64,000 nucleotides of DNA from positions 1,169,329-1,233,328 of the forward strand of contig CP181398.1 in NCBI GenBank assembly GCA_047946875.1, in the 5' to 3' direction. Within the stretch, counting starts at the first letter, position 1, and each line of letters opens with the position of its first letter. Shown here in pieces: positions 6,251 through 51,659 of the stretch. Under the pieces are notes generated by a model. The model made no database searches. It saw only the letters and a list, made by a program, of their open reading frames with translations, and was not told the origin of the DNA. Source of the DNA: Candidatus Kerfeldbacteria bacterium (GTDB taxonomy: Bacteria; Patescibacteriota; Patescibacteriia; UBA10025; JAHIVO01). Both the position numbers and the translations under genes were made by a program.

Positions 6251-7048
6251 TTATTTTTTCAATTCAACTACATCAAGTGTGCGATTATAAATCGATGCTG
6301 TCTGGCCGGCATCAACATTCCAGCCAACCTGAAAAGTATGTGATCCAGCAGTAACATCTACCAAGGCATTGAAGGCCATGTTAAATGGACCGCCGGAAGA
6401 AGCGGCAGTTCCTCTTCTAATGGTGTGATCAACTATTGTCCCATCAACAATTAAAAAAGTCCTGGCTGAAACAAAGTCATTATTAATACTAAATACCCCA
6501 CTGAAATTAATTAATACGGTGCTGGCGCCAGTTGTAACAACAATAGTTTCATCTAAAATATCATAATTTGGGGAATTTTGTGTTGTTGTATCCGTAGTTG
6601 TTCCATAAGCTTCACTCGTTTGAGTTATGGCGCCGGCTGCAATATTGGTAGATGTTACTATCCCTGTCCCCATCAAACTTCCCACCGTCAATGATCCGAT
6701 TACTTCCATATTATCATTTACGATAAATGGCATGGTATCACTTGTCCCAGCTGTAGCACCACGCCAAACACGACCGTCTATTCTTACATTATCTCCAAAG
6801 GTCACAGGGTTATCAACACTATTGGTTGTTGTATCGTTTACAATAGAGCCGTTAAAGTAAGTTACTCCTCCAATATCCTGTTCCCCGATCATAATTGAAC
6901 GCATTTTCATAGTTCCATCAACTTGATAAATATCTCCTTCCGGTCCAAATTGGGAGGTGACATTGTGTGTGGCCGCAGCATTTACAATCCCCACCGTTAA
7001 TGCGATGGAAATGATCACTACCAACGATGTTATTAGTTTTTTGTTCAT
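6251..7048 (-). CDS. secreted surface protein, family member A (shares its N-terminal module with the 15173 and 16160 genes)
   Basis: Signal peptide MNKKLITSLVVIISIALTVGIVNA. About 130 aa are near-identical to paralogs B and C (HNVTSQFGPEGDI.QVDGTMKMRS...). The C-terminus is unique. Confidence 0.7.
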   Translation of the reverse strand: MNKKLITSLVVIISIALTVGIVNAAATHNVTSQFGPEGDIYQVDGTMKMRSIMIGEQDIGGVTYFNGSIVNDTTTNSVDNPVTFGDNVRIDGRVWRGATAGTSDTMPFIVNDNMEVIGSLTVGSLMGTGIVTSTNIAAGAITQTSEAYGTTTDTTTQNSPNYDILDETIVVTTGASTVLINFSGVFSINNDFVSARTFLIVDGTIVDHTIRRGTAASSGGPFNMAFNALVDVTAGSHTFQVGWNVDAGQTASIYNRTLDVVELKK

Positions 7049-11300: not shown

Positions 11301-11425
11301 ATAGCTGTTTATCTTAGAACTTATTTAATGGATGGATTGGAGGTATATGGAGTGGTTAATAACATAGTTTAGTAGTTTGTGATATAATTAATACATAAAA
11401 AAGAATTAATATTAATTTTATTTAT

Positions 11426-13610: not shown

Positions 13611-15057
13611 ATTTTTTTATATAATCAAAGGATTGTTTTTTAGTTTTAATATTACCTTTGAGTTGTTCTTCTCTTAGAGCATTTTTAATCTTACCAATTT
13701 TGGCTCCAGGTTTTATTTTGAGTGCTTTCATTATTTCATTACCGTTAATTAATTCTTTTGGTAGTACTTTTTTGTTTCTAGAAATTTTTTCTAATGCTTC
13801 TACTTGTTTAACAATTTTGTTGAAATCTTTAAAATTTGGTTGGCCATCTTTTGGTATAGTAGCTTGTATATCAGCGAAAGTTAGTTTGAGTAAATTATGT
13901 CCAGGAACATTCTCATTAAAAAAGTATTTTTCGAGTGTAGTTTTTTTCATGGGAGATTTTTTTGTGTGGGTAGAGATCATATGTTTGCTACATAGCCACA
14001 CAATATTTTCTGCTTTGATTCCAGCGCTGGATAATTTTAATCTTTTTATAATTTCGTCGGTTATTTTTGCACCAACTGTATCGTGATTATTAAATCTAAG
14101 TCTATCAGACCTCTCTATAGTATAGGGTTTACCAATATCATGAAAAAGGGTAGCAAATACTAATTCAGCATCAAGTTTTTCATTTTTATATTTTGTAGTA
14201 AATTTTTTTGAACTTAGATTTTGTAAACATAATAAAGTGTGTTTCCATACATCACCTTCAGAATGGAAATTCCTTGGTTGGGGACATTTCTTCATTTTTA
14301 ACAATTCTGGCATTAGCGCTTTGGTTAAACCGCTCTTGTCATAAAGTTCAAAAGCTAAGGCAGGATTAGCGACGAAAGCTTTAGTCATTTCTTTTGCAAT
14401 AGTTTCTCTAGGAACTAAAAATTCTCCTTTTACTTTTTTATTAATTTGAGGAGTTAATTTTTTTATTGCTGACCAAGTAGCATTATCGATTTTGAAATTT
14501 AGTTGGCAAGCAAAACGAATAGCTCTTAATATTCTTGAGTAGTCTTCTTTGAACCGTTCAGTTGCTAATCCAACAGTTTTAATGTTTTTCTTTTTTAAAT
14601 CTTTGAGCCCATTAAATAAATCAATAATTTCTTTTTTATTAATGTCGTAAGCTAAAGCATTGATCGTGAAGTCACGCCTTTTTAAATCTTCTTCGATTGG
14701 CAGATTTGGATCTGATTGGATATCAAAATCTTTATAGCCACCAGTTAGGAAAGCGTGTTCAGTACGAGGTAGGGCAATGTCGAGAGGTTCTTTTAGAGTA
14801 GAGTTTTTGGGCATAAATTTAAGTACGCCGAATTTTTTACCTACTATATCTACCCAGCCAAGAGTTTTAAGAAATTTAAGAAGTTTATTGACTGATACAT
14901 TACGTATAACAAAATCATAGTCTTTTGATTCTCGCCCAATAAGACTATCGCGAACAATCCCCCCAATTAAAAAAATTTCGGCTTGTGGAATTTTTTTTTG
15001 AAGATGTTTAATAGAAGAAAGTTCTTTTTTTTGCAATAAAGATGTAATTTGTTTCAT
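13603..15057 (-). CDS. cca: CCA-adding tRNA nucleotidyltransferase with an HD domain
   Basis: GGIVRD nucleotidyltransferase motif and HD motif LFHDIGKP. Confidence 0.8.
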   Translation of the reverse strand: MKQITSLLQKKELSSIKHLQKKIPQAEIFLIGGIVRDSLIGRESKDYDFVIRNVSVNKLLKFLKTLGWVDIVGKKFGVLKFMPKNSTLKEPLDIALPRTEHAFLTGGYKDFDIQSDPNLPIEEDLKRRDFTINALAYDINKKEIIDLFNGLKDLKKKNIKTVGLATERFKEDYSRILRAIRFACQLNFKIDNATWSAIKKLTPQINKKVKGEFLVPRETIAKEMTKAFVANPALAFELYDKSGLTKALMPELLKMKKCPQPRNFHSEGDVWKHTLLCLQNLSSKKFTTKYKNEKLDAELVFATLFHDIGKPYTIERSDRLRFNNHDTVGAKITDEIIKRLKLSSAGIKAENIVWLCSKHMISTHTKKSPMKKTTLEKYFFNENVPGHNLLKLTFADIQATIPKDGQPNFKDFNKIVKQVEALEKISRNKKVLPKELINGNEIMKALKIKPGAKIGKIKNALREEQLKGNIKTKKQSFDYIKKYE

Positions 15058-18431: not shown

Positions 18432-18575
18432 TGGTGGGACGTAGAGGATTTGAACCTCTGACCGTTTGCTTCCCGCCTTTCGGACGGGACAAGTAAGAGG
18501 CAACTTTATCCCGCTAAGAATTGGCGGGATGCTCTACTTTACCCCGCCTATTAAAGGCGGGGCGAGCTGAGCTAA
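18432..18575 (-). pseudogene. 5'-truncated tRNA-Lys copy interrupted by three GC-rich hairpin insertions
   Basis: Matches tRNA-Lys positions 9-76 exactly except for three inserts. One sits in the D-loop (18537-18565), one after the D-stem (18505-18529) and one between anticodon-loop positions 37 and 38 (18472-18493). Confidence 0.7.
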
Positions 18576-18842: not shown

Positions 18843-18921
18843 TGGTGGGACGTAGAGGATTTGAACCTCTGACCGTTTGCTTAAGAGGCAACTGCTCTAC
18901 CAAGCTGAGCTAACGTCCCGC
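18843..18921 (-). tRNA. tRNA-Lys (CUU), CCA encoded
   Basis: Anticodon loop CTCTTAA. Clean cloverleaf. Confidence 0.85.
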
Positions 18922-19020
18922 GTCGATATAATATTTTTGGTTACGTTTTCAGCTTTCGCTGCTAATTCCACCGCTCATATCATTTCTCCTTTCCTCGCAG
19001 AACGGTATCGTTCAGCTCGG
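18922..19020 (-). promoter_or_regulatory. conserved tRNA-upstream element (copy L1)
   Basis: Near-identical to 19362-19470 and homologous to 46160, 47269 and 48647 (cgtcga.ata.t.tttt.ggtt.cgttt...atttctcct..c). Confidence 0.5.
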
Positions 19021-19038
19021 TATTATTTATTATAGGAA

Positions 19039-19204
19039 TGGTACCCTCGAGAGCCCCGCTTTGAGCGGGATCTTCGAGAATCTCCGCCCAAGGCGGATGC
19101 GCCTATGGCGCAGAACCTTAAGTTTAAAAGATTGTTTATCCACGGCTCCCGCCCGCAACGCTAAAGCGTAGCTTTGGCGGGCGTGGTAGAAGGCCGTTGT
19201 TCCC
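19039..19204 (-). pseudogene. 5'-truncated tRNA-Arg copy with multiple GC-rich hairpin insertions; ends CGAGGGTACCA
   Basis: Segments GGAACAACGGCCTTCTA / AGCCGTGGATA / CTCTCGAGGGTACCA match tRNA-Arg. Inserts include a 39-nt hairpin exactly at position 37/38. Confidence 0.6.
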
Positions 19205-19220
19205 CGTCTGCCATCGCCAA

Positions 19221-19292
19221 TACCCTCGAGAGGAATCGAACCTCTATCCACGGCTTAGAAGGCCGTTGTTCTATCCGTTGAACTACAAGGGC
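19221..19292 (-). tRNA. tRNA-Arg (UCU), no CCA encoded, G1-U72 wobble
   Basis: Anticodon loop CTTCTAA. Its first 12 nt are duplicated upstream at 19346-19357 around a GC-rich element. Confidence 0.7.
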
Positions 19293-19345
19293 AATGGCAA
19301 TGGCGGGCAGGTATCCGTTGTCAGGCAGAGCCTGATCCGGCTTTG
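19293..19345. repeat. GC-rich palindromic element between the tRNA-Arg 5' end and an upstream duplicate of that end; member of the REP-like family CCGGCAKAGCCGGATCAGGCTCTRCCTG
   Basis: caggcagagcctgatccggctttgccgg is flanked by direct repeats (a)actacaagggc. Confidence 0.6.
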
Positions 19346-19361
19346 CCGGAAACTACAAGGG

Positions 19362-19470
19362 CGCGTCTAAATAATATTTTTGGTTACGTTTTCAGCTTTC
19401 GCTGCTAACTCCACCATTCATATCATTTCTCCTTTCCCCGCAGAACGGTATCGTTCAGCTCAATGTTATT
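19362..19470 (-). promoter_or_regulatory. conserved tRNA-upstream element (copy L2)
   Basis: About 95 percent identical to L1. Confidence 0.5.
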
Positions 19471-19515
19471 AAATAATATTTCGAATATTAGCAATAAAAA
19501 CTATTTAAGTCAATG

Positions 19516-29248: not shown

Positions 29249-29278
29249 TCCGGCAGAGCCGGATCAGGCTCTGCCTGA
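29249..29278. repeat. GC-rich palindromic REP-like element (family CCGGCAKAGCCGGATCAGGCTCTRCCTG)
   Basis: ggcagagcc-ggatca-ggctctgcc perfect 9-bp arms. Copies also at 34086-34118 (inverted) and 19318-19345. Confidence 0.65.
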
Positions 29279-34085: not shown

Positions 34086-34118
34086 TTCAGGTAGAGCCTG
34101 ATCCGGCTATGCCGGAAA
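34086..34118. repeat. REP-like GC-rich element (inverted copy of the 29249 family)
   Basis: caggtagagcctgatccggctatgccgg. Confidence 0.6.
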
Positions 34119-49203: not shown

Positions 49204-50699
<1,496 letters not shown>

Positions 50700-50950: not shown

Positions 50951-50980
50951 ATTTTATAGGTATTTTAAATATATGTCAAG
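50951..50980 (-). promoter_or_regulatory. candidate 16S promoter (TTGACA-N18-TAAAAT)
   Basis: Read on the minus strand. Overlaps the trmD stop. Confidence 0.5.
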
Positions 50981-51659
50981 CTTTTTTACGTATTCTAGAA
51001 TTATTAGTTTTCCAGGCCAAAATATCATTATGATTGCCACTTAATAGTACTTTTGGCACTTTTTGGCCATTAAAATTTTCAGGTCTGGTGTATTGTGGAT
51101 ATTCAATATATTTTTCGTCTTTTGTAAATGTTTCATCTTTTGAAGATTGGTCATCTCCAAGTACTCCAGGTAATAATCTAGTCGTTGCATCAATAATTGT
51201 CATGGCTGGTAATTCTCCTCCGGTCAAAACATAATCTCCTATGGAAATTTCTTCATCAATGTATTTTTTTATTCTTGCATCGTAACCTTCATAACGTCCA
51301 GCAATCAAAATTAGCTGATCATACTTTGTTAATGACTTTGCTTTTTTTTGATCAAACTTTTTTCCTTTAGGAGTTAGTAAGATGATTCTAGATTTCCCGC
51401 CAGAGGCGGGTCCGCCTTTGGAGGATTTTAATCGTTTAATTGACTTTAAACATTTGTATAGAGGTTCTATTTTTAATAACATTCCTGGACCACCACCATA
51501 AGGTTTGTCATCAACAGACTTATGCTTGTCAGTAGCGAAGTTTCTGAAATTATGGATGATAATGTTTATCTTTTTATTTTTTATTGCACGCTTAATAATA
51601 CTTTCTTTAAAGTATGATTCAAAAATATCTGGAAAAATTGTGAGAATGTCGAATTGCAT
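50976..51659 (-). CDS. trmD: tRNA (guanine37-N1)-methyltransferase
   Basis: The sequence is TrmD-like (MQFDILTIFPDIF...PYGGGPGML). Confidence 0.95.
   Translation of the reverse strand: MQFDILTIFPDIFESYFKESIIKRAIKNKKINIIIHNFRNFATDKHKSVDDKPYGGGPGMLLKIEPLYKCLKSIKRLKSSKGGPASGGKSRIILLTPKGKKFDQKKAKSLTKYDQLILIAGRYEGYDARIKKYIDEEISIGDYVLTGGELPAMTIIDATTRLLPGVLGDDQSSKDETFTKDEKYIEYPQYTRPENFNGQKVPKVLLSGNHNDILAWKTNNSRIRKKA

Follow-up and report, generated by a model that had tools for sequence, protein, structure and literature searches.

In the window considered here (the whole 64,000-nucleotide, or 64-kb, stretch that was analysed, bacterial DNA of Candidatus Kerfeldbacteria in the Patescibacteria or Candidate Phyla Radiation, CPR, with a low GC content of about 33%), an intact tRNA-Arg(UCU) gene lies inside a second, broken tRNA-Arg(UCU) gene, and the broken gene is further interrupted by short, mostly GC-rich palindromes. 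Along the minus strand, on which the one 16S rRNA gene and all 11 tRNA genes of the window are located (ARAGORN, Rfam), the order is a promoter-like site, a leader, nucleotides (nt) 1-12 of the outer copy, a double hairpin, outer nt 13-21 and the arm CCTGCCCGCCATTGCCATT, followed by the intact tRNA, the arm TTGGCGATGGCAGACGGG, outer nt 22-72 with inserts and an encoded CCA, a second leader and tRNA-Lys. The features are listed in Table 1.

Table 1. Positions of the features of the tRNA-Arg locus and of related elements (window coordinates unless a relative's locus is named)
Feature	Position	Strand	Remarks
Sigma-70-like promoter	19485..19513	minus	TTGACT-17-TAATAT with TG, upstream of leader; consensus match only
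Leader copy 1, ~116 nt, structured	19363..19478	minus	ends directly at outer tRNA-Arg nt 1; covariance model 107 bits
Outer tRNA-Arg nt 1-12	19351..19362	minus	GCCCTTGTAGTT
Double-hairpin element at 12/13, 30 nt	19321..19350	minus	TCCGGCAAAGCCGGA TCAGGCTCTGCCTGA; near-identical copies 29249-29278, 34087-34116
Outer tRNA-Arg nt 13-21	19312..19320	minus	CAACGGATA
Enclosing palindrome, left arm	19293..19311	minus	CCTGCCCGCCATTGCCATT
Inner tRNA-Arg(UCU), intact, CCA-less	19221..19292	minus	ARAGORN; Rfam tRNA 69.5 bits
Enclosing palindrome, right arm	19203..19220	minus	TTGGCGATGGCAGACGGG
Outer tRNA-Arg nt 22-37	19187..19202	minus	GAACAACGGCCTTCTA
Nested palindrome at 37/38, 39 nt	19148..19186	minus	hairpin inside hairpin
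Outer tRNA-Arg nt 38-48	19137..19147	minus	AGCCGTGGATA
AT-rich insert, 18 nt	19119..19136	minus	non-palindromic; G49 absent
Outer tRNA-Arg nt 50-55	19113..19118	minus	AGGTTC
Double hairpin in T-loop, 30 nt	19083..19112	minus	two 15-nt hairpins, Sprinzl 56/57; TGCGCCATAGGCGCA TCCGCCTTGGGCGGA
Outer tRNA-Arg nt 56-60	19078..19082	minus	GATTC
Insert at 61/62, 24 nt	19054..19077	minus	hairpin CCCGCT-CAA-AGCGGG
Outer tRNA-Arg 3' end, nt 61-72 + CCA	19039..19053	minus	CTCTCGAGGGTA + encoded CCA
Leader copy 2	18920..19035	minus	directly upstream of tRNA-Lys(CUU)
Sister case, tRNA-Lys copy, nt 7-76 + CCA	18432..18575	minus	three palindromic inserts (D-loop, 26/27, 37/38)
Paralogous double hairpin	29249..29278		25 nt after nusA; near-identical to 12/13 doublet
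Paralogous double hairpin, inverted order	34087..34116		2 nt after stop codon of AMP-binding enzyme gene
Double-hairpin element in trmD (50976-51659 minus)	51396..51425		in frame, +10 aa SSKGGPASGG
Further leader copies	48763-48647, 46273-46160, 47385-47271, 12103-11970	minus	
Leader copies in relatives	L011 11445-11561; L014 18365-18498		

The broken outer copy

It is seen that positions 19039-19204 on the minus strand hold nt 22-72 of tRNA-Arg(UCU) and an encoded CCA in five blocks that are parted by four inserts. This decomposition, which had been proposed in an earlier reading of the same DNA (the original prediction), holds base for base, as do its statements that an anticodon-loop insert is present at 37/38, as in tRNA-Lys, and that CCA is encoded by the broken copy and not by the intact gene (19292-19221), which is followed by TTGG. 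The same reading took the copy to be truncated at its 5' end. By contrast, nt 1-12 and 13-21 are found upstream of the intact gene, that is, the copy is complete and surrounds the intact gene. When the seven outer blocks are joined, they are identical to the intact gene at 71 of 72 positions, with G49 being the sole missing base, and ARAGORN recognises in the joined sequence a tRNA-Arg(tct) with CCA. In the 166 nt of the 3' part, 50 nt are collinear with the tRNA, far more than expected by chance, as 1000 shuffles gave 16.6 nt on average and 35 nt at most; as single-stranded DNA the region folds with -41.6 kcal/mol (z = -4.8).

The outer copy meets, at its 5' end, a conserved leader of about 116 nt that stops exactly at nt 1 of six tRNAs of the window, the other five being Lys, Phe, Gly-GCC, Gly-TCC and His. 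Since its 5' end adjoins the leader in the same way as those of the other tRNAs, the outer copy most probably holds the native position of the gene. The conserved parts of the leader are GAGGAAAGGAGAAAT, GGTGSAGTT, GAAACGGAACC and TTCGACGC; the consensus structure from RNAalifold has 21 pairs, of which 10 show compensatory changes, and the covariance-model scores of the copies range from 83 to 107 bits. No family in Rfam matches the leader, which could be a processing, a regulatory or a ribozyme-like element.

The nested cassette

At the junction 21/22 the outer gene is cut by a clean insertion of 109 nt, with no target duplication and no base lost. The insertion consists of a GC-rich palindrome (arms CCTGCCCGCC.../...GGCAGACGGG) with a complete, CCA-less tRNA-Arg gene in its loop, where the arms pair in the RNA fold as a 10-bp helix with an interrupted extension, making about 17 bp by manual pairing. 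Between inner and outer sequences there are only 17-19 nt and thus no element body. The inner copy is presumably the functional tRNA-Arg gene.

The nesting is not a peculiarity of the window, as it is also seen in the relatives' loci (L numbers) L001, L002 (both Arg and Lys), L035, L063 and L113; the layout recurs in at least seven independent assemblies. The syntenic loci of relatives were retrieved via homologues of the Xer-type recombinase adjacent to the locus. A scan of genome contigs with the recombinase protein gave distant homologues from other phyla only, and no contig on record was found to encode the recombinase itself or a protein 100% identical to it. Further loci came from a pattern scan of metagenomes, in which five of 63 matches were genuine low-GC tRNA-Arg relics (L035, L041, L057, which is the same as L011, L063 and L075) and the remainder were chance matches. 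The 10-nt arms CCTGCCCGCC and GGCAG(A/G)CGGG are common to the Arg cassettes of the window, L001 and L063 and to the Lys cassette of L002, and an empty 33-nt palindrome of the same arms (CCTGCCCGCC...GGCAGACGGG) is present in frame in rluD of L013, where the linker region (14290-14345) carries a nested GC palindrome in frame that includes this empty unit. An intact tRNA of the same isotype lies within about 300 nt of every interrupted copy seen. Our literature searches found no description of such a nested arrangement. Of the two parts of the locus, the colonised relic and the replacement cassette, the cassette is the more novel one and merits further work.

A similar layout is observed at tRNA-Pro(UGG) (window 48549-48321, minus strand), where outer nt 1-11, a palindrome and GCGCAGTT precede the intact gene (48461-48387), which lies inside an 18-bp AT-rich inverted repeat and is followed by outer nt 26-68.

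Comparison with relatives

In L013, L014 and L114 one plain tRNA-Arg gene with CCA occupies the syntenic site beside the Xer-type recombinase gene, and the CCA is encoded by the tRNA-Arg of these three loci and of L115. As it is the more distant relatives that carry one plain, CCA-ending tRNA-Arg, we take this as the ancestral state and the outer copy of the window as probably the ancestral gene; the CCA on the outer copy would then have its origin in the CCA of the ancestral single gene.

The window and L001 have the nested gene within identical palindrome arms inserted at 21/22. In L001, however, the 12/13 hairpins are absent, as is the entire 3' relic, in the place of which an open reading frame (ORF) of the GIY-YIG type is present. 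In L002 and L113 the nested gene has other arms and is inserted at 35/36, in the anticodon loop, and the outer copies have substitutions and have lost blocks. L011 contains a series of displaced 3' copies of both types. L115/L116 have an outer 5' block with hairpins, then an AT spacer and then an intact gene with CCA. Thus the relics decay and are lost; because the 3' relic is gone in L001 and blocks are mutated or lost in L002 and L113, the relics are probably dispensable. Small GIY-YIG nuclease genes are located beside tRNA genes in L001 (2703-2972, at the site of the Arg 3' relic) and in L014 (17972-18223).

The inner allele is usually foreign. The outer 5' block of L001 is identical to the inner copy at 19 of 21 positions, and for Arg in L002 the inner and outer copies agree at 59 of 77. 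For Lys in L002 the inner copy matches the window allele (71/74) and the outer copy matches the L011 allele (71/74), as compared with 62/75 between inner and outer. Because the two alleles of a nested pair are in most cases different, the inner genes are best read as incoming copies that displaced the residents. A relic downstream of tRNA-Lys in L013 (11358-11500) ends with CCTCTGCGCGCACCA, which matches the tRNA-Lys of L014 (11306-11380) and not L013's own; because of this mismatch between relic and gene, the resident tRNA-Lys of L013 was probably replaced by another allele.

The tRNA-Arg locus is a hot spot of integration. The large serine recombinase gene of L115 (1247-3095; Resolvase, Recombinase and Zn ribbon) has at its borders inverted repeats of about 24 bp (ACCAAAATCAAACTTTCCGAAAA), and since one of them overlaps the CCA end of tRNA-Arg, this is a mobile element integrated at the same locus.

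Hairpin families and their insertion sites

The window has 26 GC-rich hairpins with perfect stems of at least 6 bp, compared with about three in shuffled sequences, and 22 of the 26 are intergenic. Alignment of the hairpins into sequence families, as had been proposed, gives near-identical 30-mers at three sites: the doublet at 12/13 reads TCCGGC-AAA-GCCGGA TCAGGC-TCT-GCCTGA, with the other copies differing by 1-2 nt. This makes the elements a many-copy, mostly extragenic palindrome family, of the type of the repetitive extragenic palindromes (REP) and their paired form (REPIN).

The double-hairpin elements are mobile. The nusA-hppA spacers of L011, L013 and L014 are without the element, and the window spacer equals that of L013 plus 34 nt, which are the 30-nt element and AATT; since the spacer occurs in relatives without it, the copy at the nusA site is a true insertion. 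Target-site duplication, which would be a feature of miniature inverted-repeat transposable elements, is absent at the insertions into tRNA-derived DNA. Note also that an element can enter a protein gene in frame without destroying it, which is a feature of Rickettsia palindromic elements (RPE): the insert in trmD aligns to a gap of exactly 10 residues in PDB 3ky7 with the remaining alignment intact, and a further nested palindrome lies in the rluD linker of L013 mentioned above. Spacers, tRNA relics and coding DNA are thus all occupied.

The distribution over these three is very uneven. A manual count places about 19 insertions in roughly 0.3 kb of tRNA relic DNA, about eight in the other ~12 kb of intergenic DNA and one or two in 48 kb of coding DNA, and in the relatives' 20-kb loci the 15-nt hairpins are nearly restricted to tRNA relics. 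The expected preference for tRNA contexts is therefore borne out as a strong concentration in tRNA-derived DNA, in the window and in the relatives' loci. A special preference for 37/38, by contrast, is not seen, with 37/38 being only one among many insertion sites (12/13, 17/18, 21-24, 26/27, 35/36, 37/38, 48-50, 56/57, 61/62 and 65/66). Inserts at 37/38 occur in the tRNA-Arg and tRNA-Lys relics of the window and in the tRNA-Lys relic of L002, the two Lys inserts being homologous. The T-loop site 56/57 is occupied in every Arg relic of the unbiased loci, which for the comparison of Arg insert sites are the window, L002 and L011; the relics of the metagenome scan were chosen by their T-loop insert and are excluded from this estimate, although 56/57 is also filled in one of them, L063. 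The site 12/13 is occupied by different variants in the window and in L002/L115 and is empty in the closer relative L001. The pattern at these sites points either to repeated hits that prefer certain positions or to an ancient insertion that was later lost. As hairpins also nest within hairpins, we infer that the palindromes prefer stem-loop DNA, whether of tRNA type or palindromic.

A cluster of GC palindromes with no nearby tRNA gene is observed at 6215-6085 (minus strand), downstream of the ORF 6251-7048; the motif CTATCCGACCCCA is common to this cluster and to a region near 11330.

Model of the origin of the broken copy

Based on the above data, we propose, with a probability of roughly 60%, that the region is the relic of a tRNA-Arg pseudogene colonised by REP/RPE-like palindromes, that is, the displaced 3' two-thirds of an ancestral, leader-linked and CCA-encoding tRNA-Arg(UCU) gene which was split by a nested replacement copy. 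In the first step, which can be read directly off the junction, the ancestral gene was cut cleanly at 21/22 by the 109-nt palindrome holding a CCA-less tRNA-Arg. In the second step, the inner copy would supply the tRNA, leaving the outer gene free to degenerate. In the third step, for which the elements themselves are seen and the order of events is reconstructed, at least five more clean insertions are present in the outer gene, mostly of short GC-rich palindromes, typically 15-nt units in 30-nt doublets, belonging to dispersed and recently active families that also enter intergenic spacers and, in frame, protein genes. In the fourth step, the palindromes would enter tRNA-type stem-loop DNA preferentially and would reach fixation in redundant copies alone, since an insertion into the one functional gene would be lethal; preferential entry together with this selective fixation would explain the pile-up in relics. 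The hairpins are then selfish REP/RPE-like DNA and not introns, since small GC-rich palindromic mobile elements colonised a gene that had already been split by a replacement tRNA.

Several points weigh against this model. No transposase or HUH/Y1 protein is found by Pfam in the window, where the scan covered most ORFs of at least 100 amino acids (aa). A viral carrier is equally lacking: the viral contigs scanned for cassette junctions, arms and hairpins gave zero or chance matches, the latter being in unrelated, mostly GC-rich contigs with no tRNA context. (A blastn comparison of the locus with phage records gave generic tRNA-Lys matches only.) The recurrence of 12/13, 56/57 and 37/38 could reflect shared ancestry rather than target preference. 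Short tRNA blocks (GGTTC, GATTC, CTCTCGRGGGTA) and hairpin stems are intact between genomes with unalignable AT-rich inserts, and the stems carry compensatory changes between those genomes, which could mean selection on RNA or DNA structure rather than neutral junk. This conservation could equally result from self-correction of the palindromes, from replacement by the genome's own element variant, or from horizontal exchange of whole tRNA loci, with the last being supported by the non-tree-like distribution of alleles. The presence of a tRNA in the loop of a palindrome lacks an explanation, and the survey covered the 64-kb window and about 150 kb of relatives, which is less than a whole genome.

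With regard to the tRNA in the loop, the candidate origins are a self-complementing mobile cassette, break repair at palindrome centres from a homologous tRNA template, and recombinase-mediated capture. More specifically, the palindrome-enclosed tRNAs may be an undescribed selfish cassette that inserts cleanly into the cognate tRNA gene, compensates for the gene destroyed, swaps alleles between Kerfeldbacteria lineages and becomes indispensable to the host, with the solo GC hairpins being cargo-less members of the same system that target stem-loop DNA; this proposal is tentative, and we would not bet on it at even odds. If it is true, the self-complementing mobile cassette would be a new strategy for selfish DNA.

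Alternative explanations

Rather than being colonised by palindromes, the region might have been formed by serial site-specific integration, where elements carrying tRNA-Arg were integrated by a tyrosine or serine recombinase and later deleted, with the tRNA segments being remnants of attachment (att) sites and the hairpins being parts of the element arms. The classic footprint of integration is a partial 3' tRNA copy lying downstream of an intact gene, and such copies occur here at His, Lys, Leu, Gly-GCC and Arg; moreover, a tyrosine recombinase gene lies directly upstream of the locus, L115 has the large serine recombinase element at the tRNA-Arg 3' end, the Lys relic of L013 bears the acceptor end of another genome's allele, and relatives differ in the genes downstream of tRNA-Lys. 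A direct repeat of the tRNA 3' segment bounding an integrase-encoding element is in part found at L115 and at the tRNA-His relics of the window. At the tRNA-Arg locus of the window, however, no element body is present, with only 17-19 nt between inner and outer sequences, and the inner gene is complete and has fragments to either side. From integration at an att core one would expect direct repeats around the element, not a 5' block upstream of an intact gene and a complete tRNA nested within. No core is duplicated at the junctions, which are clean; the neighbouring recombinase gene, of the Xer type, is conserved in synteny and is present also where tRNA-Arg is plain; and the same hairpins are found far from tRNAs. 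We thus consider this origin unlikely, though the best placed of the explanations that compete with the colonised relic.

Somewhat less probable still is that selection keeps the exploded copy as a tRNA-derived structured RNA or DNA element with a function of its own. It might serve as a spacer for processing or stability of an Arg-Lys precursor, act as a terminator or insulator, or divert nucleases or integrases that target tRNAs, as a decoy. The copy does lie within a likely transcription unit, with a promoter and leader before it and a leader and tRNA-Lys after it; the 326-nt RNA fold, closed by the outer acceptor stem, has -149.4 kcal/mol (z = -6.1); and among the window, L002, L011 and L063 the hairpin stems show compensatory double substitutions while the short tRNA blocks are identical. 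Yet high fold stability follows automatically from palindromic inserts, and compensatory change in DNA palindromes can also come about via template-switch correction or replacement by genome-specific copies. Furthermore, the exploded copy is missing from L013, L014 and L114, its 3' half is gone in L001, and in L002 and L113 blocks of it carry mutations or have been lost. As a sign of function, a compensatory change in the acceptor stem of the outer copy was rejected, both states being present in intact genes of relatives (L013 vs L014).

The original prediction leaned towards introns. If the outer gene had several introns, its transcript would be stripped of the hairpins and of the inner tRNA, and the exons would be ligated to a second functional tRNA-Arg. 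It is true that inserts lie in or beside loops, with the Arg and Lys relics of the window and the Lys relic of L002 all having one at 37/38, and that the joined exons give a valid cloverleaf ending in CCA. The bulge-helix-bulge (BHB) motif places the exon-intron junctions in two 3-nt bulges separated by a 4-bp helix. By contrast, at 37/38 the fold passes from the anticodon stem through an asymmetric internal loop of 9 x 3 nt into the insert's own 7-bp helix, and the 4-bp central helix is absent. The inserts, which have 15-39 nt, are palindromes that fold on themselves without exon-intron pairing, one of them is AT-rich and unstructured, and G49 is missing. Nor does the interrupted gene appear to be the functional one, as would be expected of BHB introns, since an intact gene of the same anticodon lies inside or beside every interrupted copy. 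The same elements are found in protein genes and spacers, and the relics decay in relatives. No splicing endonuclease (EndA) or ligase was seen among the ORFs scanned in the 64-kb window. A group I intron has a catalytic core of about 200 nt or more, which is detectable with the Rfam Intron_gpI model; the inserts match neither an intron family nor any other family in Rfam, whether the gathering threshold is applied or E values of up to 10 are allowed. The RNA genes of Patescibacteria contain introns unusually often, and the published tRNA introns of this group are group I introns (PMC13011429). These are unrelated to the present hairpins, and we consider the intron explanation highly improbable.

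The rejected candidates include a transfer-messenger RNA or other known tRNA-like RNA (none by ARAGORN and Rfam), integron cassettes (the recombinase is far below the integron-integrase cut-offs, and attC would not enclose a gene), a CRISPR array (no constant repeat with regular spacers) and an assembly artefact (the architecture is identical in independent assemblies).

Relation to known systems

The elements show a general likeness to several known systems. Like RPE, reportedly described by Ogata et al. in 2000, they are selfish DNA made of short palindromes, and their host is a bacterium with an AT-rich, reduced genome. However, RPE are about 100-150 nt long, whereas the window elements have 15-39 nt, form GC-rich islands and are heavily concentrated in tRNA-gene relics. 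REP and REPIN elements, which are mobilised by REP-associated tyrosine transposases (RAYT, of the Y1/HUH type), are likewise imperfect GC-rich palindromes of 20-40 nt, often paired, mostly extragenic and just after stop codons, with genome-specific variants and little or no target duplication. Unlike them, the window elements are without a RAYT (Y1 transposase) or IS200-like gene among the window ORFs scanned and without an established conserved flanking tetranucleotide. To our knowledge, REPs are not known to pile up in tRNA pseudogenes or to carry a tRNA in the loop.

The double-hairpin elements of Allomyces and chytrid mitochondrial DNA (mtDNA), reportedly the work of Paquin, Laforest and Lang in 2000, and the GC clusters of yeast mtDNA are also GC-rich two-hairpin mobile units in AT-rich genomes, which enter spacers, variable parts of RNA genes and protein genes and nest in one another. 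They differ in being organellar, the window elements being those of a CPR bacterium, and we know of no description that links them to tRNA replacement cassettes. The archaeal and eukaryal BHB tRNA introns, including the multi-intron tRNAs of Thermoproteales, are alike in having several short GC-rich loop inserts, with 37/38 among the sites, and differ in the BHB motif, which is absent here, in the bacterial host, in the intact copy that is always present and in the occurrence of the same inserts outside tRNAs. Partial tRNA genes are left by integrating genetic elements (PMC9897764); these too are non-canonical fragments beside an intact gene at a locus of mobile DNA (here the L115 element), but in the present case the intact gene is inside the broken one, with fragments on both sides, an inverted repeat and no element body.

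It is noted that with these results a tempting false lead is removed, as hairpins at 37/38 in a bacterial tRNA copy are not evidence of archaeal-type introns in CPR. A streamlined Patescibacteria genome still bears active palindromic selfish DNA, including in-frame hits in core genes (trmD), and in these organisms the tRNA loci are hot spots of turnover where foreign alleles replace resident genes. Automated annotation of such genomes will face many tRNA fragments and "exploded" pseudogenes.

Other features of the window

The window ORFs scanned, which are most of those with at least 100 aa, encode ordinary core functions by Pfam (PNPase, NusA, H+-PPase, trigger factor, TrmD, SMC, CCA-adding enzyme and others). 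The 16S rRNA gene lies in the region 49208-50698 and is followed by tRNA-Ile, Phe and Pro and then by protein genes. No 23S rRNA gene is present anywhere in the window, which extends for about 49 kb downstream of the 16S gene on its strand, and for this reason the rRNA genes appear unlinked in the source genome.

Further tRNA relics were also observed. In the spacer between 16S and tRNA-Ile (48989-48890, minus strand), a decayed tRNA-Ile copy broken by GC palindromes lies upstream of the intact tRNA-Ile, with nt 1-15 intact and the remainder mutated or deleted. Relics of the 3' parts of tRNA-Leu(UAA) and tRNA-Gly(GCC) (45350-45315 and 46015-45990, minus strand) consist of the acceptor 3' strand with a GC hairpin before each, and that of tRNA-Gly(GCC) has CCA. 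The 3' relics of tRNA-His and tRNA-Lys share one design in the window (11845-11735 and 11245-11160, minus strand), L002 (14279-14790), L011 (11700-11880) and L014 (11450-11745 and 18637-18735): an inverted copy of the T-loop and T-stem (e.g., GAGGGATTCGAAC) precedes a GC-rich body of 30-130 nt, after which come the 3' strand of the T-stem in direct orientation, then in many cases a CCTGCC..GGCAGG palindrome, and then the acceptor 3' strand. A body of about 75 nt (CGGTCACGAGCGAGACG...GGTGACCAGGACAACGA) is conserved between the Lys relics of L002 and the His relic of L014.

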